Shown here: one piece after another, positions 10,640 to 28,206 of the stretch
How the letters are laid out: each line of letters starts with the position of its first letter
Numbering within the stretch: position 1 is the stretch's first letter
NCBI GenBank assembly: GCA_016699935.1
Contig: CP064992.1
Location: 90,001-122,000, forward strand
Length of the DNA stretch: 32,000 bases
From: Candidatus Saccharimonadota bacterium
GTDB taxonomy: Bacteria > Patescibacteriota > Saccharimonadia > Saccharimonadales > UBA4665
Direction: 5' to 3'
Translations under genes and position numbers: made by a program
The notes under the pieces: generated by a model
The model's input: only the letters and a program-made list of their open reading frames with translations
Told to the model about the DNA's origin: nothing
The model's database searches: none

Positions 10640-11400
10640 TTAAATACTCCTAAAGTCATATCTCTTGACTCATGTCTTAAATTTCCATCGGTTATTCAGT
10701 TGTTAAAAAACCATTTGCTGCATACTATCCACCTCACACAGCGTATTCTAGGCCATTTTATCATATTCATAATACATTGTCAACATTATTTCACAATAAC
10801 CATTAGCGGCTTGTGAGCCCTGTCATTCCGGACTTGATCCGGAACCCAGAACTATGTTTATGGTCATTGTCATTCCGAGCATTGTCGAGGAATATCCTAC
10901 TTTTTCGCATATCGGGACAAGAAGATCTTTCGACTCCACCCACTAAAGTGAGTTCCGCTCAAGATGACACATAAACTCTTGACTCATGTCTCATGCATCT
11001 TAACTCTAATTATTAAAGTACCATCAAGCCAGATCATTACAGAACACAAGACGCAGCTAAAGCTGCTTAATTAGCGATTATCCATTCGCCATTACCCATT
11101 GTAGTTGCATCGGCTTCGCCGACATTTCCAACTCATGTCATTCCCGCGCAGGCGGGAATCCAGTCAATTTATGGTCGGCTTCTCTACACATCTTCCCACT
11201 AATCTCTTATCTCTTACTCCTTAACTCTAATTTCATGGGGTAAAGCGGGTGGTATTGGTGATTGAAGATTGAGGAGTTTAGAGACAGGCGTAGGCCTATC
11301 AATACTCACATCAATCGACAATCGACCAATACCACCACGCTAGAGCGTAACGCTTTGCTCTTACGAGCTCGCTCTCAGTCCGAGGACTGATACCCTTTTT
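10640..11400. repeat. ORF-free cluster of short palindromic/hairpin repeats and heptamer-periodic tracts
   Basis: GTCAT-headed palindromes lie at 10822-10845, 10869-10893 and 11136-11160. The last is the exact reverse complement of 30344-30368. A long imperfect inverted repeat spans 11248-11336. Reverse-strand heptamer tracts lie at about 10655-10685, 10975-11025 and 11190-11240. Confidence 0.7.
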
Positions 11401-11464
11401 GCTAGATCACCTCCTTACGGAAGTAGGGCCTCACTCACGGTTGTGAGCAAGGTACTGCTGTTGC

Positions 11465-12725
11465 CTACGCCGGGGGTGGCGGAGGCGGAGGCAGCGACGC
11501 GGACTGCGTCGGCTGCGGGGTCGGCAACGGAGCCGGGGCTCCGTTGGCGGAGGGAGGACTGGGCCACCACTGTGGGTGGGGGCCGGCGACGGCGTCGCAC
11601 GCGGCGGGCTGCCGGGTGGGATGCCGTTTCCGGAATCCCGTGGTGGCGTCGCTGGCCGCGACACCTCCGTGCCGTTGTCTGGTGACGGGCCGTTCTTCGT
11701 CGACTGGCCGGGGACCTGTCCGCGGGACTGCGGGTCTGCACCCGGGTCCTTTGCACAGGTTCCATCGTCGCCGACTGGCTTGCCCTTGTCCGGCCCCGAG
11801 GGGCAGGTCTGAACGTTGTTGTCCGTCGGTCCCGGCAGGAAGATCTGGATCAACGTGACTCCATTGCCACACCGAGCCATCACCCACACGGAACGGATGA
11901 CCTTGCCGGCCTGGTCGACGAAGTCGATTCGGACAGCCTTCCGGTCTCCCGGATTTCGTTCGTCGTGGACGACGTGACCTGACCGCTCGAAACTCCCGTG
12001 TTCACCCCGTTAGCCGGAGCCTGGTCGGGGACGATTCGGGACTTGCCGAGCGCGAGGTACATGGTTACGACGTATTCCTTGGCCTTGTCCGACGCACACT
12101 GCGCGTTGCCGAGCACCGCCTGGTCCACGTCCTGCTCGAGCAGAAGCTTGATGGCTCCTTGAAGCGTCACACGATCGAGCTGGATCTTGCCCATCCATTC
12201 CTGTGCCGCAGCGGCTGCTTGCGCGTCCGTCGTGGCATCCTGGATGGACTTGAGACCATTACTGATCCACGCAAAGTTCGCGTGGTGGTCAGGCTGCCAG
12301 GCCCAGTTCATGCAAACGACCGGTGGGGTCGTAGACGGGCTGGCCGACGCGCGCTGTCGCCGAGGGCAGCGCGGTCGCCGAGGTGGCGGTGCTGGTTGCA
12401 CCGGCGCACGCCTTCGACTGAGCTGCCTTGGCACGATCGAGGTTCGCTTGGGCACCAGCGACCTTGGCGGCTTTCTCAGCCTCGGCAGGCGAGCCGACCT
12501 CGGGAACGAGGTCAGTGGCGGCCGCCAGTGCCGCTTGGGCGTTCGTCAGAGCGAGGTGGCCTGCTGGCAGGTCATCTGGTCGCTGACGAGCGCAGCCGGG
12601 GCGGATGACGGGAGGCTGCAGGCCGACAGGCCAGCAGCGATGGAGACAGCGAGGAGGCCAGTGGCCGCCAAGCTGCTCCGGACGGAGCGCGAACTGCGGG
12701 GAACCCGCAGGTTGATCACCTTCAT
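11465..12725 (-). CDS. putative lipoprotein with Pro-rich C-terminal tail (high-GC codon usage), several frameshifts
   Basis: GAAGGAGG lies 6 nt upstream of ATG 12725. The N-terminus MKVINLRVPRSSRSVRSSLAATGLLAVSIAAGLSAC is a signal peptide with a lipobox. Coding continues through at least three frame changes (about 12550, 12330 and 11930). One change reads ..NEIRETGRKAVRIDFVDQAGKVIRSVWV... The protein ends PAPLPTPQPTQSASLPPPPPPPA. The frame path and stop were chosen by GC3 and are uncertain. Confidence 0.6.
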
Positions 12726-12736
12726 GGTTGCCTCCT

Positions 12737-13453
12737 TCAGGCTGAGGTGGTCATGGAACCGGACGCGGGCGCGGCCGGTGTGGAGCTGTGGTCGACGACC
12801 GGTGAGGTCGGGACCGGTGCGGGGGCGGGTGCCGCCGCAGGGCGAGCTGGGGCCGGAGCCGGTCCGAAGACCGGGTGGTCGGCGGACGGGGGCGGCGGAA
12901 CCGCAACGGCGCGCTGAACGCGACGTTGTTCGCGGTCGAACCGCCGGTCTTCCCTCCAGCTGCGGAAACGAGCCCTCATGCGTGAGAAAACTCGCTTTAG
13001 CGAGCGCCTCAGCCGCATGAGACGACCAGTTGAACGGCGAGGCGCGATGCCCCAACCGTTGACTTCGACCTGGTCGCGCTCGGGGCGCGATGGCCAGATG
13101 GCCATGACGAACAGGGCGACACCCAGGAGGGCGACGCTGACCATCCTCATGGTCAGGCCGATGTCGGCCGTTACGCCGCGAGTCACGAAGACCCCCGTGG
13201 TCAGTGCGACCGCGAGCGCGGCATAGCCGAGAACGGTGGTCCATCTCCGCTGGTCCATGACACCCCAGATCATGACGATCAGGGCGAGAACGGACCAGCC
13301 GGCGGTGGCCCAGTTGAGCGACATGTCGCTGGTGAGCGCGGTCTTGAGACCTGAGGTCTCAGACGGGTGCCATGCCCACCAGTTGGTCGCGAACGCGACC
13401 ATCGTAGCGAGGGCGAGTGTCGCAACCAAGCGACGTAACTCGGTGAAGAACAT
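12737..13453 (-). CDS. hypothetical integral membrane protein (4 predicted helices, Ala/Pro-rich tail), high-GC codon usage
   Basis: AAAGGGGAG lies upstream of ATG 13453. The product starts MFFTELRRLVATLALATMVAFATNWWAW... with four hydrophobic spans and an Arg-rich then AP-rich tail. Its stop lies 11 nt before the lipoprotein start, giving an operon. The longer track ORF extending to 13825 runs into low-GC DNA and is not credible. Confidence 0.65.
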   Translation of the reverse strand: MFFTELRRLVATLALATMVAFATNWWAWHPSETSGLKTALTSDMSLNWATAGWSVLALIVMIWGVMDQRRWTTVLGYAALAVALTTGVFVTRGVTADIGLTMRMVSVALLGVALFVMAIWPSRPERDQVEVNGWGIAPRRSTGRLMRLRRSLKRVFSRMRARFRSWREDRRFDREQRRVQRAVAVPPPPSADHPVFGPAPAPARPAAAPAPAPVPTSPVVDHSSTPAAPASGSMTTSA

Positions 13454-14427
13454 GCTGATCTCCCCTTTCATGGGAGTTGTGGTTCGTAGTCGGCAGGTGC
13501 CGGCTACGGGCATCTCTGTCCCCGGGTGGGTCCAGACGATTCCTTTCTGTCGGGGGCGTATGAACGGACCCGATTCGAGGACTAACTCCCGTGGAGGAGA
13601 TGGCCGGGGTAGCGATGAATGTGGGGCTTCATCGGTACCACGGCCACCTCCTGCCTTGGAAAGAGATTGCATGCGTACAAACAGTTTTTTTACCTTTCTA
13701 GCAAAAAGGTTTTTAGTTACACTCATCAAAAAGACAAGCGGAGCTAAAGCGTTACAGTTTTCTGCTGCTAGGAGCGGCGGAGTATGTGAGAGGATTATCC
13801 TTCCACATGGCTCGACACTACTCAACCAGAGCAGAGTGCTACGGGTAATACTAGGGTACAGGCGTTCGGATGCTAGCGGCTATCATTGCACTGCTAGCCA
13901 TGGCTCGTAGAGATAAATACTAGCCATGTAATGCTAGCTACGTGCATTTCTACCTCTGTTATCCAAACTTCTGTACGGTATCACCCAGTAGCACTCTGCC
14001 CTAGCCTTTCTAGCGACAGGTGTTTTCTCCACTCCCGAGCGAACTATCCCCAGGGCCATGACAAATGAGCCATAGGCGAACGAGGCGATAGCCGAGCTTT
14101 AGGGCAAGAGGAGAGCTGTTTCGGATTTATTCCGAAACAGCGAGGAGAGCAAGGCTCCTTTTATGTTCCAAAATGATCTGACTTGTTAACGTACCCCTGT
14201 CGTAAGACTCCCGGGCGCGTAGGCTATAACAGCGCAAAATAGCAGGCGGTAATCCGTCTGCATCTGTTACTGTTTGTTGCCCACCTGTTAAAAGGGTTTG
14301 ATCCCTTTGCACTCGGTTATGGAGTTATCTCTGTCGCCCCACAACAAAGGATGTACACATATTAGCATCTATTTTGATTATTGTCAATACTTAACGTAAG
14401 CTTTATGATGCTTTGTCTATAGTGTTT

Positions 14428-14575
14428 AACCTGAATCTCAAAACCCCCACGATGTCATCCCAGCGAAGGCTGGGATCCAGATATTCGAAATGGATTCCCG
14501 CCGGAGTTTATCCTCAACTCGGTTGGGGACGGGAATGACACAAGTACAAATGGAGACGGTTTTGAGACTCAGGTT
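14428..14575. mobile_element. MITE-like non-autonomous element, copy B
   Basis: The terminal inverted repeats are AACCTGAATCTCAAAAC and GTTTTGAGACTCAGGTT. It has the same internal hairpins as copy A (GTCATCCCAGCGAAGGCTGGGATCC at 14454-14478). It sits 8 nt downstream of the histidine kinase stop. Confidence 0.75.
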
Positions 14576-14583
14576 GTTTATGT

Positions 14584-15864
14584 CTATTTTAAATTGTCTT
14601 TTGCTACAGGACTCCTGGCGAAGCGGAAGCCAAAGGTGCTGCCTTTGCCCTCTACGCTTTCAAACAGTATGCTGCCGCCCTGGACAACAACCACCTTTTT
14701 GGCCATATATAATCCTAACCCCGTCCCATCGGGTCGGGTGCGTTTGGCGTTTTCGGCACGATAAAACTTGGTAAAAAGATGTCGTTGTTCGGCGCGCGGC
14801 ACGCCTATGCCGCTATCTTTGACTGTAAATTCCACTGCCGAGGGCGTCTCTTTTAGCTCAATCAAAATTGTGCCACCCATTGGGGTGTAGTAAATAGCAT
14901 TATCGATAAGGTTCATCACCACCTGGTGCATCTTACCTTCATCGAGCTCAACAAGGCTAAAGGTAGACGGCATATCCCACGTAACCGTAATATTTTTTGC
15001 CTTGGCCGATTCATGCAGCTGAGCCACCTCTTGGTCAACGATGACACGCAGGTCAGTTGGCTGGGCCTCAATGACAAACTTACCCGTGTTCAACCGTGAT
15101 AGATTAAGCAAGTCGGCAATGAGGTTCACCATACGTTGACTACTGAGAAACGACTGCTTGAGCAGCTCTTCTTGCTGTGGCTTTAAGGGGCCTGCGTCGC
15201 CCTCCAGCACCATACTCAGGTAGCCCTTGACGCTCGTCAGTGGCGTACGAAGCTGATGAGAAGCCATAGAAATAAACTCGTCCTTGGTCTCATCGAGCTT
15301 CTTGAGCTTCTCGTTTGTCGCCCGGATTTTTCGCGTAGCCTCATCCACTCGTTGTTGCAGGGTCGTATTGAAAGCCTGTATCTCCTGGAAATGCTGCGCA
15401 TTCTGGATTGCTACAGCTAGTTCACCTGCTGTGATGGTCAAGAGATGTCGGTCCTGAGAGCTGTAGGGTTCACCATTTTTTTTGTGCCCAATCAGGATAT
15501 GCCCGACGATTTCCTTTTGTGTCTTCAAACGAAGGCTGAGTGCAACCTGTGCGCGAACCAACAAAAGATGGAGCGAGTTCTGCGAATCCGTTTCCTCAAC
15601 CTCAATGAGCTCTCGACGCTGTAATGAGAGCTGTTCACGAAAACTCTCCACATGAGGAGTCAGATGATGGTTCGGAAACGAAAGAGGCTTTTTATCATGT
15701 ACAAGAACATACTCTATAAAAGACGGCTTAAGAGCATTGGCTAAAACAGTGCGCGTGCCATCAAGTATTTTAGCCAGACTCGTTTCCACCGCCACAATAT
15801 CGCCAATCTTGTCAAGAACTTCCTGGAAATCATAGCTTTCGCGATAAAACAGCTGGTTAGTCAC
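14584..15864 (-). CDS. sensor histidine kinase cytoplasmic portion (GAF-like, HisKA, HATPase_c)
   Basis: H-box ISMASHQLRTPLTSVKGYL, N-box VVMNLIDNAIYYT, G-boxes VKDSGIGV and GTGLGLYMAK. The preceding roughly 170 aa look GAF-like (..IVGHILIGHKK..DRHLLTITAGELAVAIQNAQHF). Confidence 0.9.
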   Translation of the reverse strand: MTNQLFYRESYDFQEVLDKIGDIVAVETSLAKILDGTRTVLANALKPSFIEYVLVHDKKPLSFPNHHLTPHVESFREQLSLQRRELIEVEETDSQNSLHLLLVRAQVALSLRLKTQKEIVGHILIGHKKNGEPYSSQDRHLLTITAGELAVAIQNAQHFQEIQAFNTTLQQRVDEATRKIRATNEKLKKLDETKDEFISMASHQLRTPLTSVKGYLSMVLEGDAGPLKPQQEELLKQSFLSSQRMVNLIADLLNLSRLNTGKFVIEAQPTDLRVIVDQEVAQLHESAKAKNITVTWDMPSTFSLVELDEGKMHQVVMNLIDNAIYYTPMGGTILIELKETPSAVEFTVKDSGIGVPRAEQRHLFTKFYRAENAKRTRPDGTGLGLYMAKKVVVVQGGSILFESVEGKGSTFGFRFARSPVAKDNLK

Positions 15865-16736
15865 TCGATCAAAAAGTGCTTCATGTACTGGAACGATATG
15901 GCGAGTGGCATTAGCAATAGAGTGGATAGTATTTGCCGGAGCGTCTCTCTGTCTGGGCCATCAAAAAATACATTAATCACGCCGAAGAGTCCCGCTACAT
16001 AGATTCCAACCATACTGCCAACGACTAGGATGTATCCAACCGAACGAGCGAGAGCGGCACGTATATCAAAGAGTTTCTGTGCAACAATTGCGTACGCAAT
16101 TATGCTCGCGAAAGCGAATGTATACAGCGGGCTAATCGTGATAAAGAAAGTCGTTTTAAAAATTGGAGTAATGGCAAAATTGGTTATGGGTACAACGATC
16201 CAGACTAGTATCGACGCCAGCAAAAGAATAAATAGCTGATTTCGTAACTTGCCACGGGCTGAACGGAATTTGTGCACCAGTCTGTGAAAAGCCATTCCGA
16301 TCGAGAATGCAGCATGAGATATAAACAATCCCATTCCTAAGGCAGCTTGGGTAACTGGAGTACCCTCAGAAACCGAAACATTTTGTAAGACAAAAGGCGA
16401 CATAACTGCACCTGCAGTGATAGCACTATATACCAGATATATGACACAGCTGCGGCGTGAATATTTCCAGTGCGTCTCAGGAAATGTATGCGCAAACAAA
16501 TAGAAAAACGTGTTTTGCATAACGACCGAGAAAAATAATAATCGAACAATCAACAATATATGCGGCGAGTCCAATAAGACGATGCTGAGATAGCTTAACA
16601 AAGCCCACATAAGTGAAGCAACACCGATGATTGCAAACAAGATATTAGTAAGGTTGCGCCGCCCTTTGAGAACAACAAACAGTACAAGCACAAATTGGGC
16701 TAAACTGCTCATGATGACGCTTATCGTTAGTATCAT
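15861..16736 (-). CDS. polytopic membrane protein (7-8 helices), probable N-terminal sensor domain of the downstream kinase
   Basis: The 291-aa product is almost entirely hydrophobic helices. Its stop overlaps the GTG start of the kinase ORF (GAGTGACT). This is either translational coupling or an indel splitting one roughly 717-aa kinase. Confidence 0.7.
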   Translation of the reverse strand: MILTISVIMSSLAQFVLVLFVVLKGRRNLTNILFAIIGVASLMWALLSYLSIVLLDSPHILLIVRLLFFSVVMQNTFFYLFAHTFPETHWKYSRRSCVIYLVYSAITAGAVMSPFVLQNVSVSEGTPVTQAALGMGLFISHAAFSIGMAFHRLVHKFRSARGKLRNQLFILLLASILVWIVVPITNFAITPIFKTTFFITISPLYTFAFASIIAYAIVAQKLFDIRAALARSVGYILVVGSMVGIYVAGLFGVINVFFDGPDRETLRQILSTLLLMPLAISFQYMKHFLIE

Positions 16737-16775
16737 TACTACTAATGGTAATATATCATTAGAGAAATAACACGC

Positions 16776-17803
16776 ATGAATAAAAGAAACTATAGCGCAT
16801 GGCAGATCGACTCGAGAGAGTTCAATACATCTCTCACTTCAAACGAGAAATTATTGTATTTCGCCCGATACGCAATCTTGGCCCCATCTGGGCACAACTC
16901 ACAGCCGTGGCTTTTGACCCCCGCTCATGAATCCCTCTTGCTTACAGTTAACCCAGATCATCATCTTTCTGCTGACGGCTCGGGACTGCTGAGTGTTGAG
17001 CCGTTCATCAGTCTAGGGACATTTGTCGAAACATTCGTGTCGGCCGCACGGGGATTTGGTTACATGGTCAATGTTACTTTGTTCCCAGAAAAGCATGTCG
17101 TCGCTAAACTACAGCTTGGTGAGATCTGTGAAGCCGAACCCAGCCTGCTCAATGCAATCGTGAGACGAGTATCAAATCGCAATCCATTTGAAACCCAACC
17201 ATTGCATACTGATATCTTGCAACGCTTGGTGTCTAGATGTCCTAGTGGGGTTGCCGCACACACCGTCACGACGCAAAAAGACATTGCGTTCATTAATGAA
17301 CAGACAAGTGCTGCCATTCGCTCAATCATGGGAAAACAGGCTTACCGCAACGAGCTGAGCACATGGGTAAGGGGAAACCTAACACGTCGTTTTGACGGTA
17401 TGCCAGGCTTTACGCATGGGTTCGGGCTCGCTGCATCACTCATGGCAAAAATGGCCGTGAAACGTGGCGCAAGTCCTGGCGCACAGGTGAAAAAAGCTAA
17501 TTCACTCATAAAAATTCTGGAGCACTTTTAGTTATACGTGCGACCAAAGAAACTCCTGAGGCTTTTTTGAATGTAGGGCGTTGTTATGCACGCGCTTGCA
17601 TCATCACGACTCAAGCGGGACTTGCCACAAGTGTTCTAGCGGCATCAGCTATAGATGCAGAGACACGCCACAATCTTGCGCGCTATTTCCACCTTTCCGA
17701 TCGGCCAATCATGGTAATTCGCATAGGCAAACCGACGATACCAGCTAGGCATGGGCCGCGTTGGCCGCTTGAAGAGGTTATGACAAGCCAAGCCGAAGCA
17801 TAG
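16776..17803 (+). CDS. Acg-type nitroreductase-family protein, one frameshift
   Basis: The motifs are LYFARYAILAPSGHNSQPWLL and C-terminal ALLVIRATKETPEAFLNVGRCYARACIITTQAGLATSVLAASAIDAETR. These follow the two-lobed nitroreductase pattern of the actinobacterial Acg family. Track ORFs 16776-17531 and 17567-17803 join between 17497 and 17529. Confidence 0.7.
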
Positions 17804-18884
17804 TAGCCTGACGTTCGGCGCTCGCTGAAGTATCATGCACTGCCATACTGAACCAATCTGCGAATCGTACATAATAACGGCCTGACGCTAGTCCAGCGCC
17901 GAGGATTATTTGACGGATTGTGTATGCGGCCAGCCCCCGTCAACCGCAATTGTGCTGTATAGCTGGGGTCGGCCGACAAGTGATGTACCGATTTCGGTGA
18001 GTGATTGCAGCGCCCTCGTCGGCACATACTCCACCCCAACGAGCTGCACGGCATATCGTTTTGCATCTTCAGTGGTGATAATTCCTTTTGTTGGATGTCT
18101 TCACTGAGACCAGGGAGAGGCCATTGAATACATCAAGCGCTGGATCAAGATCATAGCGTTCTACGTCAATCAAAATCGAGTCACCCAGACTAGTAAACAT
18201 AAGAAGCGGCACACCATATGCTTTGGCTTTCACCCGAAGCTCCACCTTCATCTTAAAATCATCGATCTCGTCCACTACGACGGTGGTCTGCGGATCTTGG
18301 AAAAACTTATCAATATTATCGTCTCGTACCCCATTTTCAAAGGGAATGACATTCGCAAAAGGGTTGAGTTCGTAAATACGCTGCATCGTAAGTGCAAGCT
18401 TTTCTGCCCCGACGGCGGTTAGGGATTCCCTGAGACGGTTTAGGTTGGCTGTTTCGAGTGTATCGAAATCAGCCAGCTTGATGGTGCTCGACATTCCAGA
18501 ATACACACATGACAGCGCAATGCCCGAACCAACCGACATACCTGCAACGGCCACGGTACACGCGGCCAAACGAGCCTGTTCTTCGGCAGTAATTAGGAGT
18601 TTATTGCGATTGGTACGTAGTTCAAAGAGCGCCTCGTCGCTGACGCAGTGCAGTAGTACGCCTGACCACGGATAGTACACCCAGACCCCAGCGAGTTCTT
18701 CGGCCGGGTGAGCTTCGATGAAAGCTTGTCGCGCCTCAGCATCACCGGGAAACCGGATTTCAGCAAGTTCCACTATCTGACCAGCGTAGATATCCACCTC
18801 TTTCCATACTGGTTTTTCGCGAAGATGCGCTACCTGCTCGGTAGAAAATGCAGCTTCACGTAGTATAACTGGCACTTCAATCAT
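17778..18884 (-). CDS. ThiF/MoeB-type E1-like adenylyltransferase (resembles the N-terminal half of Rv1355c-family proteins), at least three frameshifts
   Basis: ATG 18882-18884 overlaps the upstream TGA (ATGA). The Rossmann region is VAVAGMSVGSGIALSCV..IKLADFDTLETANLNRL. After the track stop at 18069 the sequence continues in other frames: ITTEDAKRYAVQLVGVEYVPTRALQSLTEIGTSLVGRPQLYSTIAVDGG, then LAAYTIRQIILGAGLASGRYYV. The C-terminal end is uncertain. Confidence 0.7.
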
Positions 18885-20413
18885 GCCTTGACATCCTTTA
18901 CTACCCATTTTTGTTTCGTTCCTGGGCGAAAATACGTTGGGTCTTCGTAGTTCCATAAGTAGATAATTGGCATGGCATCGGGACCAATCATTTTATATGT
19001 CTCTCGATACTCTGAGCTTTCTTTCACTAAGCCTTCCTGGACAAACTGCAAAGTCTCTTCCCTCAATACATCACTCGGCTCAATGCCGTGCTTGAGCTCA
19101 ACATGGATAGAGAGCTCCTGACGCCCAGCATCGTTATAGTCAACTTGCATAGTAAATTTGCCTGTCAGCTTATGAATAAGGTCATCGTGCTGCAGGGCGC
19201 GTCGCACCATATCGGGGTACAGCTGAAAAGCATAGTAGCTAACACTAAAATCATTGCGCTCATATATGTAGACGTAGGGCAGGTTCCACTGTGTATCTGC
19301 AATACCCTGCTCGGCAGCCATCTGGGTTACATTGTAGCCCTTTTGGGCAAGCGTCTTGTGAGCTGTCTCGCGCGAGACTACGCCACCGTAGTCTTTGAGG
19401 TCATAGCGCACAAGTGGCAGCCCACTATCTGCCGTGCAGAATAAGCTGTTTTCAACTGCCTCAAAGTAAAACTGCTCGGGATTGTACTGAGCAAATGTTG
19501 GCTGGCGATCTTTCTCCGGGAATATCAACTCCAATTCATGTTGCGCAACAAGAGTCCGACGAATCATGATTGATTCTGGCGTTTCATGCGCCATCGTCCC
19601 CATATCGACCGTGCCGTAATGGTTGAGTGTCTGCGTGAGCACATCTCTCGCACCCGTCTTATGCAAGACGTAATCACGGAATTTCTCACTGAATGCTTCG
19701 GCTGAGAAGACAAATCCGACTTGTAGCTCCTTCCAATCAATACCCGCTCGTTCTCCGTCATCTAGGATATCTTTCAGGAACGGAGCATATGCGCCGATGA
19801 TAATTTGGTCAAAACTACCACCTAGCTGCTTCACGGCGTTTATAACTTCTTGTTTGTGTATACCAGGAGTAATGATGCTGAGATTGTAGCCACCTCTATC
19901 GGCAACAATCTTGAGAGCTTCATACGTAAAGAGGCCACCAATCCATGCCCCCATCGGAAACGCGACAATATAAAGTGTGGTTCGTTCGTGGATACGAAAA
20001 TTTGAGCGCATATACAGCTCAGCTGTCATAGCGTACTGGTTGTCTTGCAGATGTTTTCGAGGAAAATAATATGGCTGACCAGTTGAGCCTGAAGTAGTAG
20101 ATATAACCCACTGCCCATGCGCAAACTCACCATCCCAACACAGCATATCAACTGGATATTTCCGAAGGTAATTGTCTTTATCGATGGGTGGTATGCGATG
20201 AAAATCGTCACAACTTCTAACCTGGCTGGGCAAAAAGGCACGTGATTTCAGAAAATCTTTGTAGGCTGGAACCCTCTCGGCCATTGCGTGGAATTGTTTC
20301 AGAGCCCGTTCAGCCCCACGTTTTTGCCAGAGCTCTTCTGGGTCAGTTTGTAAACGCCAGTGCAGCCGCACTGCGTCTTCGTACTGTTTCATTTGTGTCT
20401 TTCGTGTGTTCAT
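18881..20413 (-). CDS. ANL-superfamily adenylate-forming enzyme, phenylacetate-CoA ligase / F390-synthetase-like
   Basis: AMP-binding P-loop STTSGSTGQPYYFPR. The overall layout (..VPAYKDFL..IPPIDKDNYLRKYP..) is typical of PaaK-like ligases. The start is uncertain: ATG 20413, ATG 20392 or GTG 20482. Confidence 0.75.
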   Translation of the reverse strand: MNTRKTQMKQYEDAVRLHWRLQTDPEELWQKRGAERALKQFHAMAERVPAYKDFLKSRAFLPSQVRSCDDFHRIPPIDKDNYLRKYPVDMLCWDGEFAHGQWVISTTSGSTGQPYYFPRKHLQDNQYAMTAELYMRSNFRIHERTTLYIVAFPMGAWIGGLFTYEALKIVADRGGYNLSIITPGIHKQEVINAVKQLGGSFDQIIIGAYAPFLKDILDDGERAGIDWKELQVGFVFSAEAFSEKFRDYVLHKTGARDVLTQTLNHYGTVDMGTMAHETPESIMIRRTLVAQHELELIFPEKDRQPTFAQYNPEQFYFEAVENSLFCTADSGLPLVRYDLKDYGGVVSRETAHKTLAQKGYNVTQMAAEQGIADTQWNLPYVYIYERNDFSVSYYAFQLYPDMVRRALQHDDLIHKLTGKFTMQVDYNDAGRQELSIHVELKHGIEPSDVLREETLQFVQEGLVKESSEYRETYKMIGPDAMPIIYLWNYEDPTYFRPGTKQKWVVKDVKA

Positions 20414-20542
20414 CTGTGAATAGGCGTATTGTAGCACGCAAGCACCAAGCCTCACTACGTTTGAAATACGAATTGACGTCACAATATTGTCATAGCTGCC
20501 TCAACCTGGTACAGTGTTACTTACTGTAAGAGAAAGCAAAAC

Positions 20543-21672
20543 ATGACATTCATCGCGCAACGCTTGAGCTATTTCGATAGCAGCGACTTTCGGGACGCTA
20601 TAAGTAAACAGAGCCTACTAACAGACCCCGTTGACCTCAGTATTGGTGTTCCAGAGGAATTAACACCCGAACACATCAAGGCGGCGGGGATCCGAGCTAT
20701 TACGGAAGACAAGACAACATATCTCCCAGCAAACGGGTTGCTTGAACTAAGGGAGGCGCTCGCCCACAAACTCCAAACCGAGAACAGCATTCCCTGCACG
20801 CCCGAAAGCGTCACGGTCGTTCCTGGACTGACTACTGGGCAGCTTCTAGTGTACCTGGCGGTTGTCGATCCGGAAGATGAAGTTATCGTCTTCGACCCCT
20901 ATTACCCACCCTATCCTCATCTCGCTAAGATGGTCGGTGCGAGCGTCACCTATGTTTCAACACTACCGACGTTTCAACCTGATCTGGCTGCTCTCGAGGC
21001 AAGCATAACCGATAAAACCAAATTGATTGTCATAAACAGTCCCAATAACCCGAGCGGTGCTGTCTATCCAGAGGAAACACTCCGGGCTATCGCTGCGCTC
21101 GCCGAAAAAAAAGCAACATACTAATCGTCTCGGATGAAATCTACGAATCATTCAGCTATGATACTCCTCATTTCAGCATCGGTAGCATCTACCCCAACAC
21201 CATCACTGTGAATGGCTTTTCGAAGGAGTACGCTATGACTGGCTGGCGCCTCGGCTATATCGCTGGACCACAAGAAATCATCGATGCTATCAATGAATTG
21301 CAGCAGTACGTTGTTATGTCAAGCTCCTCCATCGCCCAACATGCAGCATTGGCAGCGCTAAAACAAAAGCCGACGCATATCGTTGAAAAATATCGGATCA
21401 AACGCGATTACCTTGTTAATAGCCTAAAAGCTGCTGGTTACCATGTGATGGGCGCCGAGGGAGCATTTTATGTTTTCGTCAAAGCGCCACACAACCTGAC
21501 CGATGTCGAATTTGCAGAGCGAGCCAGCGCACGAGGGCTCATCGTCGTTCCTGGTAGGGCATTTTCACAGCTTCATGGTTACATACGTATTTCGTACGGC
21601 GCAAGTATGGACACACTACGACGAGGGGTTTCGATTCTCGAAGATATTGCCCAAGAGTTAAAAGATGCGTAA
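20543..21672 (+). CDS. class I/II pyridoxal-phosphate-dependent aminotransferase, one frameshift at an A8 run
   Basis: Motifs are INSPNNPSGAVY and NGFSKEYAMTGWRLGYIAGP (PLP-lysine motif). Track ORFs 20543-21124 and 21208-21672 join through ..LAEKK|NILIVSDEIYESFSYD.. at the A-run 21106-21113. Confidence 0.85.
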
Positions 21673-21707
21673 AAAGCATGCTTTGCTTCGCGTGGTAGAA
21701 TAAGCAT

Positions 21708-22073
21708 ATGAAGATTGCAATCGTAGAAGACGATCTGGCTATAAGCATGATGTATAGGATCAAGTTTGAGGCAGAGGGTTTCGCTGTCGAAACTGCAGCT
21801 AACGGTAAGCTAGGACTTGAGCTGATCGAATCCATGAAGCCAGATATAATCCTGCTGGACCTCATGATGCCCGTAATGACTGGTCACGAGATGCTGGCTG
21901 AATTACGCAAAACTAGCTGGGGCAAGGATATCAAAGTAATAATCCTGACTAATTCTGGCGAAGAACAGGCTCCGCCGAATCTAAAAGAACTGGACATCCG
22001 CCGTTACATCGTAAAAGCCGAAATGACTCCCCGCCAAGTTGCCGAAATGGTCAAAACCGAACTCGCCGCCTAA
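21708..22073 (+). CDS. stand-alone response-regulator receiver domain protein (CheY-like, 121 aa)
   Basis: MKIAIVEDD...PDIILLDLMMPVMTGHEML...VIILTN...YIVKAE carries the acidic pocket, the phospho-Asp (LLDLMMP), and the T and K signature positions. There is no output domain. Confidence 0.9.
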   Translation: MKIAIVEDDLAISMMYRIKFEAEGFAVETAANGKLGLELIESMKPDIILLDLMMPVMTGHEMLAELRKTSWGKDIKVIILTNSGEEQAPPNLKELDIRRYIVKAEMTPRQVAEMVKTELAA

Positions 22074-22085
22074 CCAAAATCGCGG

Positions 22086-22141
22086 CGTGAAAGCTCCGAC
22101 CTTTCACGTAATCAAAAAGCGTGAAAGGTCGGAGCTTTCAC
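22086..22141. repeat. REP doublet (inverted pair) flanking the RAYT gene, also a convergent terminator
   Basis: CGTGAAAGCTCCGACCTTTCACG (22086-22108) and its inverse CGTGAAAGGTCGGAGCTTTCAC (22120-22141). Each unit is itself a palindrome (GTGAAAG-7 nt-CTTTCAC). Confidence 0.85.
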
Positions 22142-22150
22142 AGAGAAGAC

Positions 22151-22759
22151 CTAGGGTGTATCTGGGTCGTCTGGGTTGTTCGCTAGTTGCCACTTTAACA
22201 GCGCTAATTCACGCATGGAATCTTGATATTCATCAACGAATTCCAGATATTCGCGTTTAGACCCAAATAAATCCAGAATTTTTCTGTGTGCAGCCAGCCC
22301 GGCGACGCTTGCAAACGTCGATAATACTGTATACTCGAATACGGCCATGCTAGATATTTCTCTGGGTTCAAGTGAATATAGCGTGAAATGTGGTGCAAAT
22401 AAGCGTCGGCATTGATTCGTGAAGCCTTGTATCGCCCCTGAAAAAAGACCACCAACCCGTGCATATCGATTATTGAAATACATAACGTAACCCGTTGTCA
22501 CTCTTCGCATCAGTTTTTCGACACCACGGTCACTTTCTTGGTACAGCAGTAAGTGAAAATGATTTGGCATAAGACAATACGCGAGCAGCTGGACTTCTGA
22601 ACCAATAACGGTAGCTTTGTGCCGGTTTGCTTTATTGTAATTCTCGCCAATCAAATACTTTTTGAGTAAGCCAAGAAAACCGTGTAATCCTGGGCGTCAA
22701 GGAATATTACACGTTTCTCCACGCCCCTGTTATACACATGGTAATACGTTTTTCGGCAT
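22151..22759 (-). pseudogene. REP-associated tyrosine transposase (RAYT, IS200/IS605 TnpA-like), multiply frameshifted
   Basis: Motifs lie across several frames: YYHVYNRGVEKRVIF, LLAYCLMPNHFHLLLYQ, GYVMYFNNRYARVGGLFQGRYKA and YLHHISRYIHLNPEK. At least four frame changes separate ATG 22759 from the stop at 22151. Confidence 0.8.
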
Positions 22760-22902: not shown

Positions 22903-24224
22903 ATGGATATTGCGATTGTTGGATTTGCGACAGAGGAATTGTGAGTGCGAAATATTTCGCAGAGCATAAGCACAGGGTGACTGTATGTGACAAAAACACG
23001 AACCTAGTTATCCCTGAGAGCTATGAAAAGCAACTAGGTGATAAGTATTTGGCAAATTTGAACCAATTTGACGTGATTGTGCGAAGCGCTGGGATTCAAC
23101 CATCTGTTATTCTAGCCGAGAATCCGGGTGTAGAATCCAAGATTACGACGGCGGTTGATGAATTTCTGCGAGTTTGCCCGACAAATAATGTCATCGGCAT
23201 CACCGGCACCAAGGGCAAAGGCACAACTAGTACTTTGATAGCAAAGATGCTCCAAGCGTCTGGCAAAACAGTTTATTTGGGTGGAAACATTGGTCGCTCG
23301 CCACTCGAATTTGTGGACGATATCCAGCCAAATGACTGGGTAGTGTTGGAGCTAAGTAGTTTCCAGCTAATGGATATAAACCATTCACCGCACATTGGCG
23401 TCTGTCTAATGGTAGTACCGGAGCATTTAAACTGGCACGCTGATATGGCGGAATATATAAAGGCCAAAAGTCATCTTTTTGAATGGCAAAATAGCGATGA
23501 TGTCGCAATATTTTTCGCCGACAATGAGTTGTCAAAGGAAATTGCCCACAGTGGTGCAGCGCGTAAATTGCCCTTCTACGCCCCACCGGGTACATGGGTA
23601 AATGGCAATATGATAACCATCGACGGCCTAGAAATTTGCACGACAAACGACCTAAAACTGCTCGGAAAACACAACTGGCAAAACGTCTGCGCCGCCGTCA
23701 CAGCTGTCTGGCAAGCCCTTCAGCCAACTACCCCAGGTGAAATCGACAGAGTAAAAACCGCCATCCGAGACGTACTGACGACATTTACTGGTCTAGAGCA
23801 CCGGCTAGAATTTGTACGCGAACTCGACGGTGTGAAATATTACGACGATAGTTTCGGTACTACCCCAGAAACAGCCATTGTCGCTTTGCAGGCGTTTGAG
23901 AATCCCAAAATTGTCATCCTGGGTGGCTCAGACAAGGGCGCTTCGTACGACGAACTGGCACGCGTCGTGGTGGCAAGCTCCATGCGAAAAGCGCTCCTCG
24001 TCGGCGAACAAGCAGGAAGAATTCGGGCTGCGCTCGAGCAAGTTGGGTTTTCTGATTTCACGCCTGGCGGCAAAAGCATGTCAGAAATAATCACAAACGC
24101 CCGCCAGCATGCTCAACCTGGAGATGTTGTCCTGCTCTCAACTGGATGTGCTAGTTTCGGATTGTTTAAGGATTATAAAGATAGAGGCAACCAGTTTAAA
24201 CAAGTTGTGCAATCGCTCGTTTAA
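22903..24224 (+). CDS. murD: UDP-N-acetylmuramoyl-L-alanine--D-glutamate ligase, one frameshift near codon 12
   Basis: Mur-ligase P-loop GITGTKGKGTTSTLIAKML, HNWQNVCAA and GLEHRLEFV. The Rossmann N-terminus MDIAIVGFATE at ATG 22903 is in a different frame from ..SAKYFAEHKHRVTVCDKN (track ORF 22941-24224). Confidence 0.85.
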
Positions 24225-24846
24225 GCTCAGTGATGATGGCATTTTCTGGCTGTATCACCTCAGCTTTATCTCCGCTAATAACCTGAATTTCACTTTTTAT
24301 CCAATGGTAATGTGTGCACCCGAGCACGATCACATCTGCCCCAGCCTCTAGCACAGGTTCGATTTCTTCTCGCAAGCGAGCTTGGTTCATCGTATTGTGC
24401 TCTATAAGAACTGACCAGTCAGCACAGTCTGGCTCCAGCACTGTTACACCTTGAGCATAGAGCCGTTTTAGCTCGCCGTAGCGAGGACTCGTCAAGGTTG
24501 TTGGTGTCGCGCAAACGGCGATGACACCAGATTTTGTCAGTTCGGCAGCAGGCTTAACCATCGGCTCGACAGCGATGAGTGGAGTACTGAAATGCTCGCG
24601 CAGCCGTAGAATCAGCGTCGTCGTCACGGTGTTACAGGCAATCAGTACTACCTGGCAGCCGTCATCCACGAGAGACTGCACTACGGGTACTACGTAGCCA
24701 AAAAGTTCATCTGGTGTTTTTGTGGCATAGGGAAAATGTTCCGGTGAGTCATGGCGAAATACTACTTCGTGTTCGGGCAGCTCCCGCTCAATCGCTTTGG
24801 CGACACTGAGACCACCGACACCAGAGTCGAAGACACCTATTTTCAT
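24196..24846 (-). CDS. murI: glutamate racemase
   Basis: MKIGVFDSGVGGLSV.., IACNTVTT and VLGCTHY carry the two catalytic Cys motifs. The start at ATG 24846 lies inside the longer track ORF. The 3' end overlaps murD convergently by 29 nt. Confidence 0.9.
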   Translation of the reverse strand: MKIGVFDSGVGGLSVAKAIERELPEHEVVFRHDSPEHFPYATKTPDELFGYVVPVVQSLVDDGCQVVLIACNTVTTTLILRLREHFSTPLIAVEPMVKPAAELTKSGVIAVCATPTTLTSPRYGELKRLYAQGVTVLEPDCADWSVLIEHNTMNQARLREEIEPVLEAGADVIVLGCTHYHWIKSEIQVISGDKAEVIQPENAIITELKRAIAQLV

Positions 24847-24848
24847 AA

Positions 24849-25658
24849 TTATTTCGTGACACTTGCTTCGGCGGCGCGGATGGTGTTTTCGAAAAGGGCG
24901 CAAATGGTCAGCGGTCCCACACCGCCTTTGGTAGGAGTAATGGTCAAATCGTCACGTTCGTAGACATCCGGGTCAAGATCGCCAACGGTTTTACCCTTTT
25001 CACCTGCCACACCTGCATCGACGACAACGGCACCTTGTTTAATCATATCTGAGGTTATGAGTCCGGCTCGCCCAGTGGCTGTAATGATGACATCTGCTTC
25101 GAGCAAAAGCTCTTTTGTATTTGGTGTTTTGCTATGGATGAGTACAAAGTTGTAATCACTTTTGGTAAACATGTCTATGAGAGGTGCACCGACTAGTTTA
25201 CCGCGACCGACGAGGGCAATCCGCGACTTTTCGAGGTCGACATTATATCCAGCGAGAAGCCACAGTATGGCCATCGGTGTCGCTGGCGTATAAGGTGCAT
25301 ACTCGCCAAGACCATCGACATCTTTTTCTGGGGCTATCATATTGACGACCTCATCTGTCTCGCTAGCATCTGCTAGTGGTAATTGTACGATAATCCCATA
25401 CACACTCGGGTCGGCGTTCAAAGTTTCGAGAAGTTGCTTTACGTTTGCTTGCTCGACAAAATGCACATCAACCGCTGCACCGATATCCTCACCGTAGCGC
25501 TTTTTCATGCCCATATACGTTAGGCTAGGCCCGTGCTCTAGCGTATAGACTATTGCTAGCTTAGGCTGCACCCCCAGTGACTGCGTGAGTCGCCGCACTT
25601 CTTTGGCTTGGCGTTCTTTGATAAAGCCTGCTAGTTCTGATCCATTGAGTATTTTCAT
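24849..25658 (-). CDS. folD: bifunctional methylenetetrahydrofolate dehydrogenase/cyclohydrolase
   Basis: Motifs are GIIVQLPL, EKDVDGL, ALVGRGKLVGAPL, ADVIITATG and TPTKGGVGPLTICALFENT. The stop lies 2 nt before the murI start. Confidence 0.9.
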   Translation of the reverse strand: MKILNGSELAGFIKERQAKEVRRLTQSLGVQPKLAIVYTLEHGPSLTYMGMKKRYGEDIGAAVDVHFVEQANVKQLLETLNADPSVYGIIVQLPLADASETDEVVNMIAPEKDVDGLGEYAPYTPATPMAILWLLAGYNVDLEKSRIALVGRGKLVGAPLIDMFTKSDYNFVLIHSKTPNTKELLLEADVIITATGRAGLITSDMIKQGAVVVDAGVAGEKGKTVGDLDPDVYERDDLTITPTKGGVGPLTICALFENTIRAAEASVTK

Positions 25659-27187: not shown

Positions 27188-28206
27188 ATGAATGGAACCA
27201 AGGTCACTATTAACCCACATGATTTATACATTGTTACCGGCACTGCGCACCCGAAATTAGCAGAAGAAGCAGTGGCCGCCATGGGCTTACGGCTCGGACC
27301 AGTCAATAGAAGGCGCTTTGCCAATAGTGAGCTATACGTACAGTACGAGCAATCCGTACGCGGCAAACATGTTATCATCATCAAACATTTGCGCATGATT
27401 ACAAACGAAACTTGTCTGTGAATGATGCTCTCATGGAAACCATGCTGCTTATAGACGCAGCCCGCCGCTCTTCCGCCCGTGAAATTACCGTCGTTATACC
27501 CTACCTCGGCTACAGCCGCCAGGACCGTAAGGCGAAAGGGCGTGAGCCTATCTCGGCAGCTGTGGTTACGCACATGCTCGAAAACAGCAGGAGCACACCG
27601 TTTGGTCACCATAGACATGCACTCTTCGCAGGTACAGGGGACATTCCATGGGCCGTTCGATCATCTTATTGCCGAGCGGCTCATTTTAGATGGCCTAAAA
27701 GCCGAGATGGGCGACCGAGACCCAGAACTCTTTGCGATTGTTTCGCCGGATACTGGGCGAGCAAAAGATGCTGAGCGAGCAGCTGATATCCTCGGTGTGC
27801 GTCTGCGGCACCTTCAAAAAACGCGCGACCCACGCGACAGCAGCAAACTTATCCGCCCCAAAAACTACAGGGCGTCGAAGGCCGTATATGCTTCATGACA
27901 GATGACATGATAGACACCGCCGGTACACTTATAACGGCCGCCGAGACGCTTCGCAAATCTGGAGCAACAGCTGTTATTGCCAGCGCTACACACGCCCTAT
28001 TGTCCGACCCGGCAATAGAACGACTAGAGGGAGGCGCTATAGATAAACTAATCGTAACAGATACGGTACCGGTGGATTATGCGAAAAAAGTGCTTGGCGA
28101 CAAGCTTACCATCATACCTGTTGCGCCTTTGATCGCAACAGCTCTCCATGAAATCGCCACTGGTGGTTCAGTATCTGACCTCTTTGAAGGCCGAAACTAC
28201 TCGTAG
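27188..28206 (+). CDS. prs: ribose-phosphate pyrophosphokinase, three frameshifts
   Basis: Motifs are spread over alternating frames: [69 protein letters not shown] and [13 protein letters not shown]. The shifts are near 27385, at 27573-27576 (A4) and near 27865 (C4/A5). Confidence 0.85.

Follow-up and report, generated by a model that had tools for sequence, protein, structure and literature searches.

Bacterial oxazolone clusters have a defining signature, a gene for a ThiF-like enzyme that is adjacent or fused to one for a flavin-dependent oxidase (FDO) (PMC10404671, PMC12856293). In Pseudoalteromonas rubra, the ThiF–nitroreductase protein OxzB and the N-acyltransferase OxzA together make tyrazolones (bioRxiv 10.1101/2020.06.11.147165), and in Mycobacterium tuberculosis tyrazolones are made by TyzA, TyzB and TyzC (PMC10404671). 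Biochemical work on Rv1355c, which is TrzS, has established that this protein uses ATP to cyclize N-acyl-tryptophan and O2 for the desaturation that follows (PMC12856293; reviewed in PMC12596934). Here, we describe a gene cassette with the same signature in Candidatus Saccharimonadota bacterium, a member of the candidate phyla radiation (CPR). It occupies positions 14584–22073 of a 32,000-nucleotide stretch of contig CP064992.1 (positions 90,001 to 122,000; hereafter, the window) and encodes a sensor histidine kinase, an FDO, a ThiF/E1-like enzyme, a ligase with the PaaK fold, an aminotransferase and a stand-alone receiver protein. Judging from sequence families, we put at roughly one half the probability that the cassette is a biosynthetic operon for an amino-acid-derived oxazolone (azlactone)-type heterocycle, a CPR-specific variant of the OxzAB, TyzACB and TrzAS systems.

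The resemblance to these systems is strongest in the cyclase and oxidase. Like TrzAS (Rv1356c-Rv1355c), the cassette has a ThiF protein, homologous over the whole of the TrzS cyclase half, a flavin oxidase partner of the nitroreductase superfamily and a predicted ATP-dependent activation of a carboxylate. It differs from TrzAS in that ThiF and the oxidase are separate genes and in that the oxidase is nearer to Acg than to the oxidase half of TrzS. Moreover, it lacks a TrzA-type N-acyltransferase and has instead a PaaK-fold ligase, a putative deaminating enzyme, and a conserved seven-transmembrane (7TM) kinase and receiver. OxzAB and TyzACB likewise pair a ThiF-like cyclase with an FDO desaturase, encoded by separate adjacent genes (Tyz) or fused (Oxz), but they rely on an N-acyltransferase resembling acyl-homoserine lactone synthases that uses fatty acyl-CoA, and the CPR cassette has none. 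Here, ATP probably activates a deaminated amino acid, which would serve as the acyl donor.

A preliminary description of this DNA, made from the sequence alone, had listed the cassette genes, and open reading frame (ORF) listings and family scans locate all of them at or near the positions it assigned. It also held that the cassette matches no known logic. This view does not stand, because a ThiF protein together with this class of flavin oxidase constitutes the characterized logic of oxazolone synthetases (OxzB, TyzB/TyzC, TrzS). The window encodes a ThiF protein of the Rv1355c/TyzB/OxzB clade with an FDO gene beside it, and no acyl-CoA N-acyltransferase gene adjoins them. We found no description of the cassette in the searchable literature on Patescibacteria, CPR or Saccharibacteria, and neither a ThiF nor a ligase gene appears in the transposon sequencing (Tn-seq) tables for Southlakia. 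To the extent that the literature could be searched, the cassette is most likely an undescribed variant of the oxazolone synthetase pathway.

A genome scan with an alignment of the ligase (A2; one genome per species) yielded 335 confirmed matching stretches, almost all from CPR by record title. The best 80 of these 335 loci derive from Saccharibacteria, Paceibacteria, and Doudna-, Magasanik-, Roizman-, Gottesman-, Woyke-, Kaiser-, Lipton-, Nomura- and Adlerbacteria. Several loci are labeled 'Gammaproteobacteria'; their low GC content and, in one case, a 0.94-Mb chromosome suggest that these labels are unreliable. The counts given below come from targeted tblastn at 89 loci, each restricted to the loci with enough flanking sequence, and from unbiased clustering of ORFs. 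The ligase and ThiF genes are adjacent at 82 of 84 loci, with a median gap of 23 bp. In the window itself, the ligase TGA (18883–18881, minus strand) overlaps the ThiF ATG (18884–18882) in an ATGA at 18881–18884; the translational coupling reported in the preliminary description is thus present, and the gene-neighborhood comparison establishes the pair as a conserved unit. Natural fusions join the same proteins in several combinations: ligase–ThiF (P0242), ThiF–ligase (P0289), dehydrogenase–ligase (P0270) and dehydrogenase–ligase–ThiF (P0284), the last of which preserves the order of the separate genes. Because the arrangement recurs in more than 80 loci from many CPR lineages, it is far above chance expectation.

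The ThiF/E1-like gene (17778–18884, minus strand) matches Pfam ThiF (PF00899, E 4.7e-16). Its best family is the cyclase half of NF005901, the Rv1355c model (218 bits for the window fragment), which bears out the likeness to the N-terminal half of Rv1355c-type proteins noted earlier. For P0122, a relative of full length, the score rises to 279 bits (model positions 14–349 of 722), and no other ThiF family exceeds 69 bits. The AlphaFold2 (AF2) model of P0122 (pLDDT 91.5) matches the folds of AclA, ThiF, MoeB and TcdA, with AclA (PDB 9EGB) as the top structural match. The ATP-binding residues are invariant or nearly so in the ThiF alignment (A3) and comprise G115/S117/G119, N147-L-N-R150, K162 and D205-E-I-D208. 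The protein has the GxGxxG Rossmann-type domain, the NxNR arginine finger and the Mg/phosphate-binding aspartate of E1-like enzymes. In TrzS, the catalytic residues are Asp217 in the ThiF part and Arg540 and Gln651 in the FDO part.

By sequence, the closest solved relative of the cassette ThiF is TcdA (CsdL; E 1e-13). The motifs of the two proteins align, and the aspartate of the DEID motif lies opposite the DAID motif of TcdA. TcdA is E1-like and, with no ubiquitin-like (Ubl) partner, cyclizes an N-carbamoyl amino acid to form an oxazolone-type ring (PMC12596934). It differs from the cassette protein in its length (~270 aa) and in acting on tRNA, as t6A dehydratase. We rejected orthology between the two, since P0122 scores 33 bits against the TcdA NCBIfam model versus 279 bits for the Rv1355c family.

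The ThiF fold also matches MccB, PaaA and E1 enzymes, as might be expected of an E1-like protein or peptide modification system (Ubl-based, microcin-C-like or a ribosomally produced and post-translationally modified peptide [RiPP] pathway) whose small substrate gene had been missed. We see next to no likelihood of such a system here. Clustering of ORFs of at least 70 aa revealed no Ubl partner, E2, JAB, YcaO, precursor or conserved small ORF in 83 neighborhoods, and the absence of Ubl, E2, YcaO and precursor ORFs from the window that had been reported earlier stands. A search of the window for small ORFs ending in Gly-Gly yielded no plausible one, the intergenic gaps in the tightly packed cassettes measure 5–130 bp, and the family placement of ThiF is among small-molecule cyclases. 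Systems of the thiazole/oxazole-modified microcin (TOMM), microcin C and MccB-type RiPP classes were rejected as well, with no YcaO or precursor gene in the window or in the 83 loci. We consider it likely that the cassette ThiF is a cyclase that activates the carboxylate of a small molecule and does not activate a Ubl.

The second component of the oxazolone signature, an Acg-type flavin oxidase of the nitroreductase superfamily (16776–17803, plus strand), is encoded by a separate gene that converges on ThiF, the 3' ends overlapping by 26 bp, as first described. In the window it is split into two fragments, which score 119.7 and 39.9 bits against NF047509 (Acg family FMN-binding oxidoreductase; cutoff 199 bits). 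Intact CPR relatives reach 173–197 bits, just below this cutoff. The window oxidase also aligns with the Rv1355c model in its oxidase half (positions 366–547). The window ThiF and oxidase therefore match the two halves of a single protein model, and the proposed Rosetta-stone link between ThiF and the nitroreductase-like gene is upheld. An FDO is present in 62 of 77 loci, and its gene is on the opposite strand in 8 of 68. An accessory member of the cassettes, found in 19 of 69 loci, is an alpha/beta-hydrolase (for example, L006, 5406–7298; L084, 9732–10607; L019, 6223–7113). Some of these hydrolases are fused to the C terminus of the oxidase, giving a protein of ~630 aa, and they may open or transfer the reactive ring.

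The ligase gene (18881–20413, minus strand) is intact and encodes a 510-aa protein that is 100% identical to an NCBI protein of Saccharibacteria (P0001). The gene had been recognized correctly in the preliminary description, but its start lies at 20413, as in P0001, and not at 20482. The ligase has no match to any Pfam model, and its matches to the PaaK equivalog models are weak and N-terminal (TIGR02155, 31.7 bits, cutoff 646; NF041878, 33 bits, cutoff 700). Its AF2 model (pLDDT 91.2) has PaaK1 (2y27/2y4n) as top Foldseek matches (E 2e-24, TM-score 0.80, 16% identity), and further matches with this fold include BT_0428, 2-hydroxyisobutyryl-CoA ligase, ClxA and the amide bond synthetase McbA. 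With PaaK, ClxA and McbA the ligase shares this fold and the ANL adenylation motifs. The core motifs of the ANL superfamily (TSGxxG, YG, the RY...D motif and a C-terminal lysine) are invariant across the family in alignment A2, including T107, S108, G109, G112 and K500. The two features that mark ANL membership, a P-loop of the form (T/S)SG(S/T)TG (here within TSGSTGQP) and a C-terminal catalytic lysine, are both present. From the invariant motifs, the confident PaaK fold, and the failure to match Pfam and PaaK models, the ligase is predicted to be an active adenylate-forming enzyme of a distinct PaaK-fold family.

In source annotations the ligase is called a 'phenylacetate-CoA ligase family protein', and this label, along with the weak N-terminal matches to PaaK models, might point to a catabolic or salvage route in which the aminotransferase yields an aryl acid, the ligase converts it to an aryl-CoA as PaaK does, and ThiF and the oxidase are unrelated neighbors. 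We give this account very little credence. The ligase is ~80 residues longer than PaaK and falls far short of the equivalog models (32–33 bits against cutoffs of 646–700), no paa genes or indolepyruvate oxidoreductase occur in the 83 neighborhoods, and several proteins combine ThiF and the ligase in one chain. The position outside canonical PaaK enzymes and outside a paa operon that the preliminary description had suggested for the ligase is thereby confirmed.

A different objection concerns the product rather than the pathway type. The ligase could be an ordinary acyl- or aryl-CoA ligase whose acyl-CoA goes to an acyltransferase encoded elsewhere or to some other use, and ThiF could carry out another ATP-dependent reaction on a separate carboxylate, forming a lactam, lactone or thiocarboxylate, such that the product would be no oxazolone. 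The top structural neighbors of the ligase (PaaK1, BT_0428 and 2-hydroxyisobutyryl-CoA ligase) are CoA ligases, about 20% of cassettes lack the oxidase, and ThiF-like enzymes catalyze many different chemistries (PMC12596934). Against this, the ligase and ThiF are found fused in either order and also within the triple fusion, which points to enzymes that act one after the other on a single intermediate; no acyltransferase recurs nearby, and ThiF belongs specifically to the TrzS cyclase family. We consider this alternative unlikely.

The ligase family extends well beyond the loci analyzed here. More than 2000 sequences, most of them with a Saccharibacteria label, are closely related to the ligase, and in a filter-free search 1661 representatives of 50%-identity clusters match it at E<=1e-3; the family represents a large, Pfam-less branch of the PaaK family. 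One member (L091, 6001–7503) is an orphan on a contig of 59% GC, with no ThiF, oxidase or kinase gene nearby; hence, the family is not always tied to the cassette. At another locus (L081; 10001–13418 and 15316–17256), on a 64% GC contig labeled Actinomycetota, genes for a ligase (57% identical to the Saccharibacteria type), ThiF and an oxidase adjoin an ArdC-primase gene, and neither a kinase nor a deaminase is encoded. This arrangement may reflect horizontal transfer between Saccharibacteria and high-GC hosts via a mobile element.

Upstream of the ligase, the cassettes encode an amino-acid enzyme whose identity varies. In the window it is a class I/II pyridoxal phosphate (PLP)-dependent aminotransferase (20543–21672, plus strand; Pfam Aminotran_1_2 on both fragments of the split gene). 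Across 81 loci, this slot holds an aminotransferase in 39 and a Glu/Leu/Phe/Val-family (ELFV) dehydrogenase in 34, and no locus has both. The dehydrogenase variant has its best NCBIfam match in the tryptophan dehydrogenase ScyB (249 bits, versus 62 bits or less for glutamate dehydrogenases), which places it at least in the hydrophobic/aromatic (Leu/Phe/Trp) branch as far as family models indicate. In two distant cassettes (L086 and L089), whose ligases are ~30% identical to that of the window, the slot is occupied by an aromatic-amino-acid ammonia-lyase of the 4-methylideneimidazole-5-one (MIO) type. This lyase scores 278 bits against the NCBIfam model for phenylalanine ammonia-lyase (PAL) and 272 bits against that for histidine ammonia-lyase (HAL), and its selectivity motif is ambiguous. 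The reaction that aminotransferase, dehydrogenase and MIO lyase can have in common is deamination of an amino acid to a carboxylic acid. A precedent for such a pairing exists in flexirubin biosynthesis, in which an MIO lyase feeds a PaaK-like ligase (FlxA/FlxY); the NCBIfam models of FlxA/FlxY are among the matches of our family scans.

These components can be arranged in a putative pathway. The upstream enzyme would strip an amino acid, whose side chain is probably hydrophobic or aromatic, of its alpha-amino group and so yield a 2-oxo acid or aryl-acrylate. The PaaK-fold ligase would adenylate this acid and couple it to an amino acid's amine; by forming an N-acyl amino acid in this way, it would take the place of the acyl-CoA N-acyltransferase of described systems. 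ThiF would next adenylate the free alpha-carboxylate, upon which the amide oxygen would close the ring to a 5(4H)-oxazolone. Where present, the Acg-type flavin oxidase would desaturate this ring, and in some lineages the alpha/beta-hydrolase, sometimes oxidase-fused, would process it further. We favor an oxazolone product because ThiF belongs to the TrzS family and its association with an FDO recurs, because fusion order equals gene order and three unlike upstream enzymes share only deamination, and because TcdA, the closest solved relative of ThiF, also forms an oxazolone. Replacement of the acyltransferase by the ligase is suggested by the lack of any recurring N-acyltransferase family in the 83 neighborhoods, where the PaaK-fold ligase sits in the adjacent position and is the neighbor and fusion partner of ThiF. 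That the ligase could be competent for the step is supported by its confident PaaK fold and invariant ANL motifs, and by ClxA and McbA, which have the same fold.

Several observations weigh against this proposal. The aminotransferase and dehydrogenase reactions are reversible and could supply the amino acid instead of the acid, and the ScyB match may be a mere effect of missing leucine and phenylalanine dehydrogenase models in NCBIfam. The argument from the lyase is drawn from two loci, with its PAL/HAL specificity ambiguous. In structure, the ligase is most similar to CoA ligases, and the second step may give a CoA thioester instead of an amide. The CPR oxidases are closer to Acg, an FDO-B enzyme (173–197 bits), than to the oxidase half of TrzS (66–79 bits), and we know of no proven link between FDO-B enzymes and oxazolones. 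About 20% of loci lack an FDO, among them the closest relatives of the window locus (L001 and L003–L005), and therefore a desaturated oxazolone is not the universal end product. Finally, because the oxidase lies on the opposite strand in the window, the kinase is not obviously co-transcribed there with the ligase–ThiF pair.

In the deposited sequence, four of the six cassette genes are split. Comparison with relatives resolved six lesions, each a 1-nt deletion in a homopolymer run: three in ThiF (plus-strand runs 18113–18115, 18074–18075 and 17934–17938), one in the oxidase (A run, 17510–17514), one in the aminotransferase (A8 run, 21105–21112) and one in the kinase (T run; plus-strand A run at ~15871–15875). 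Adding one base per lesion restores full-length ORFs for ThiF (369 aa), the oxidase (342 aa), the aminotransferase (376 aa) and the kinase (717 aa). Six frameshifts within 7.5 kb, and an NCBI annotation that holds ThiF as a truncated 271-aa protein (P0121), could be taken as signs of a decaying, non-functional pseudogene cluster in this genome. The repaired genes show no excess of substitutions, though, and the alignment of repaired ThiF with P0122 is gapless (77% identity). The repaired aminotransferase is 64% identical to that of L001, and the repaired kinase is 40% identical over its full length to the L001 kinase. Genes beyond the cassette are also split, namely an IS200-like transposase gene (22151–22654) and probably a phosphoribosyl pyrophosphate (PRPP) synthetase gene (~27479–28206). 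Because all lesions are 1-nt homopolymer deletions and unrelated genes of the window are split too, the six frameshifts are probably long-read assembly errors, not decay specific to the cassette, and we regard a pseudogene cluster as improbable. The preliminary description had proposed repairing the frameshifts from reads; as probable assembly errors, they call for no biological repair. Recoding of UGA as an explanation for the in-frame TGA codons in ThiF was rejected, as the flanking residues match relatives only after frame changes at homopolymers. The locus tag IPL68 presumably belongs to a long-read set of metagenome-assembled genomes from activated sludge.

The cassette is also accompanied by signaling proteins. 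The sensor histidine kinase gene (14584–16736, minus strand) encodes Pfam HisKA_7TM, HisKA and HATPase_c domains, and a homologous 7TM kinase is found within 6 kb in 64 of the 65 loci with enough flank. Of the 7TM-GAF architecture initially assigned to it, the 7TM domain is clear and the GAF domain of the window copy falls below the Pfam threshold (E 4–6e-4), although relatives have a significant GAF match there. The invariant sensor of the kinase family is the 7TM domain; GAF occurs in some lineages and is missing from forms of 527–535 aa. Where co-directional, the kinase gene follows the last enzyme gene by 5–44 bp, and it is retained where the upstream enzyme has been exchanged, where the oxidase has been inserted on one strand or the other and where a hydrolase has been added. 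The response regulator (21708–22073, plus strand) is a stand-alone receiver of 121 aa (Pfam Response_reg, E 2.4e-21) that has no output domain, in line with its earlier description as a single domain, and homologs are present in 48 of 75 loci. These associations suggest that kinase and receiver belong to a conserved module and either control the cassette or respond to its product.

A link to the mycobacterial DosR dormancy regulon had been suggested for the kinase and Acg-type gene. We found nothing for it beyond the Acg-family resemblance, and a DosR/DosS-type system was rejected. DosR/DosS pairs a LuxR/helix-turn-helix (HTH) output regulator with a soluble tandem-GAF heme kinase, and the cassette has neither: its receiver consists of Response_reg only, with no DNA-binding domain, and its kinase is a 7TM membrane sensor with a single sub-threshold GAF, not a DosS/T-type sensor. 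The autoinducer clusters lqsA-lqsR-lqsS of Legionella and cqsA-cqsS of Vibrio offer a parallel, in architecture only, in that a small-molecule synthase set containing a PLP enzyme adjoins a polytopic membrane kinase and receiver. By analogy, we speculate that the module may be a self-contained chemical signaling system, widespread in Patescibacteria, in which the enzymes make an oxazolone or N-acyl amino acid, the 7TM kinase acts as its receptor and the receiver provides the output; we advance this as a tentative proposal with the odds against it.

Variation around the kinase was seen at several loci. In L087 (1273–3292), three consecutive stand-alone HisKA_7TM proteins (221–227 aa) that have no kinase domain are encoded directly upstream of the ligase–ThiF–kinase genes; hence, the 7TM module can stand alone beside the enzymes. 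Genes for a bactofilin and a diacylglycerol-kinase-like protein follow the kinase in at least eight loci (for example, L084, 12306–13590; L051, 15495–16815).

The ligase and aminotransferase genes of the window are divergent, as had been noted, and their starts are separated by a 129-bp intergenic region (20414–20542), within the 60–130 bp estimated before. Promoters are presumed to lie here; sigma-70-like matches at 20461–20515 (plus strand) are no commoner than in shuffled sequence. Across 14300–22400, a promoter and terminator scan did not exceed shuffled expectation (15 versus 11.3 sigma-70 promoters and 5 versus 8 terminators).

Beyond the receiver gene, the window encodes a Mur ligase (22941–24224, plus strand), an Asp/Glu racemase (24196–24903, minus strand) and FolD (24849–25658, minus strand), in synteny with the Saccharibacteria relatives L001 and L003. 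Because this block is absent from loci outside the Saccharibacteria, it is housekeeping context and lies outside the cassette. Between the receiver and Mur ligase genes, the frameshifted transposase gene noted above (minus strand) is of the IS200/Y1 type (RAYT-like). It looks like an insertion specific to this genome, because the receiver–Mur ligase distance is only ~400 bp in relatives. Further along, an ORF at 27895–28206 (plus strand) matches only the C-terminal part of PRPP synthetase, and an ORF that abuts it on the same strand (27479–27898) has no Pfam match; by its layout, this region looks like another split gene, which would be consistent with indel errors throughout the assembly.

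Directly past the 3' end of the kinase gene, the window contains an island of ~2.2 kb (11400–13600) with a GC content of 60–72%, compared with ~48% for the genome. ORFs of this island have no Pfam match. One of them begins with a lipoprotein-like signal (MKVINLR...GLSAC), and for a 143-aa ORF (11883–12311) the sole match among 5.8 billion proteins is the genome's own entry, the hypothetical protein IPL68_00615. The composition of the island is Actinobacteria-like, and it could be host-derived DNA or the result of a chimeric assembly.

CPR bacteria (Patescibacteria) have tiny genomes and little biosynthetic capacity, and how they interact with their hosts is poorly understood. A cassette of five to seven genes that is kept across many CPR lineages together with a sensor kinase is a testable lead to a metabolite important to them. 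If the proposed pathway is correct, oxazolone biosynthesis, known from Proteobacteria and mycolic-acid Actinobacteria, would gain a new phylum-level group, and a new route to N-acyl amino acids would be added, in which an ATP-dependent ligase is fed by a deaminase. The occurrence of Acg-like oxidases in a ThiF context also provides a hypothesis for the function of Acg, Rv3127 and Rv3131 in M. tuberculosis. If the signaling proposal is also correct, Acg-type (FDO-B) oxidases, with the orphan dormancy protein Acg of M. tuberculosis among them, would act on one shared class of substrates, and the cassette would make a candidate for a circuit of autoinduction or host sensing in bacteria otherwise stripped of most biosynthesis.

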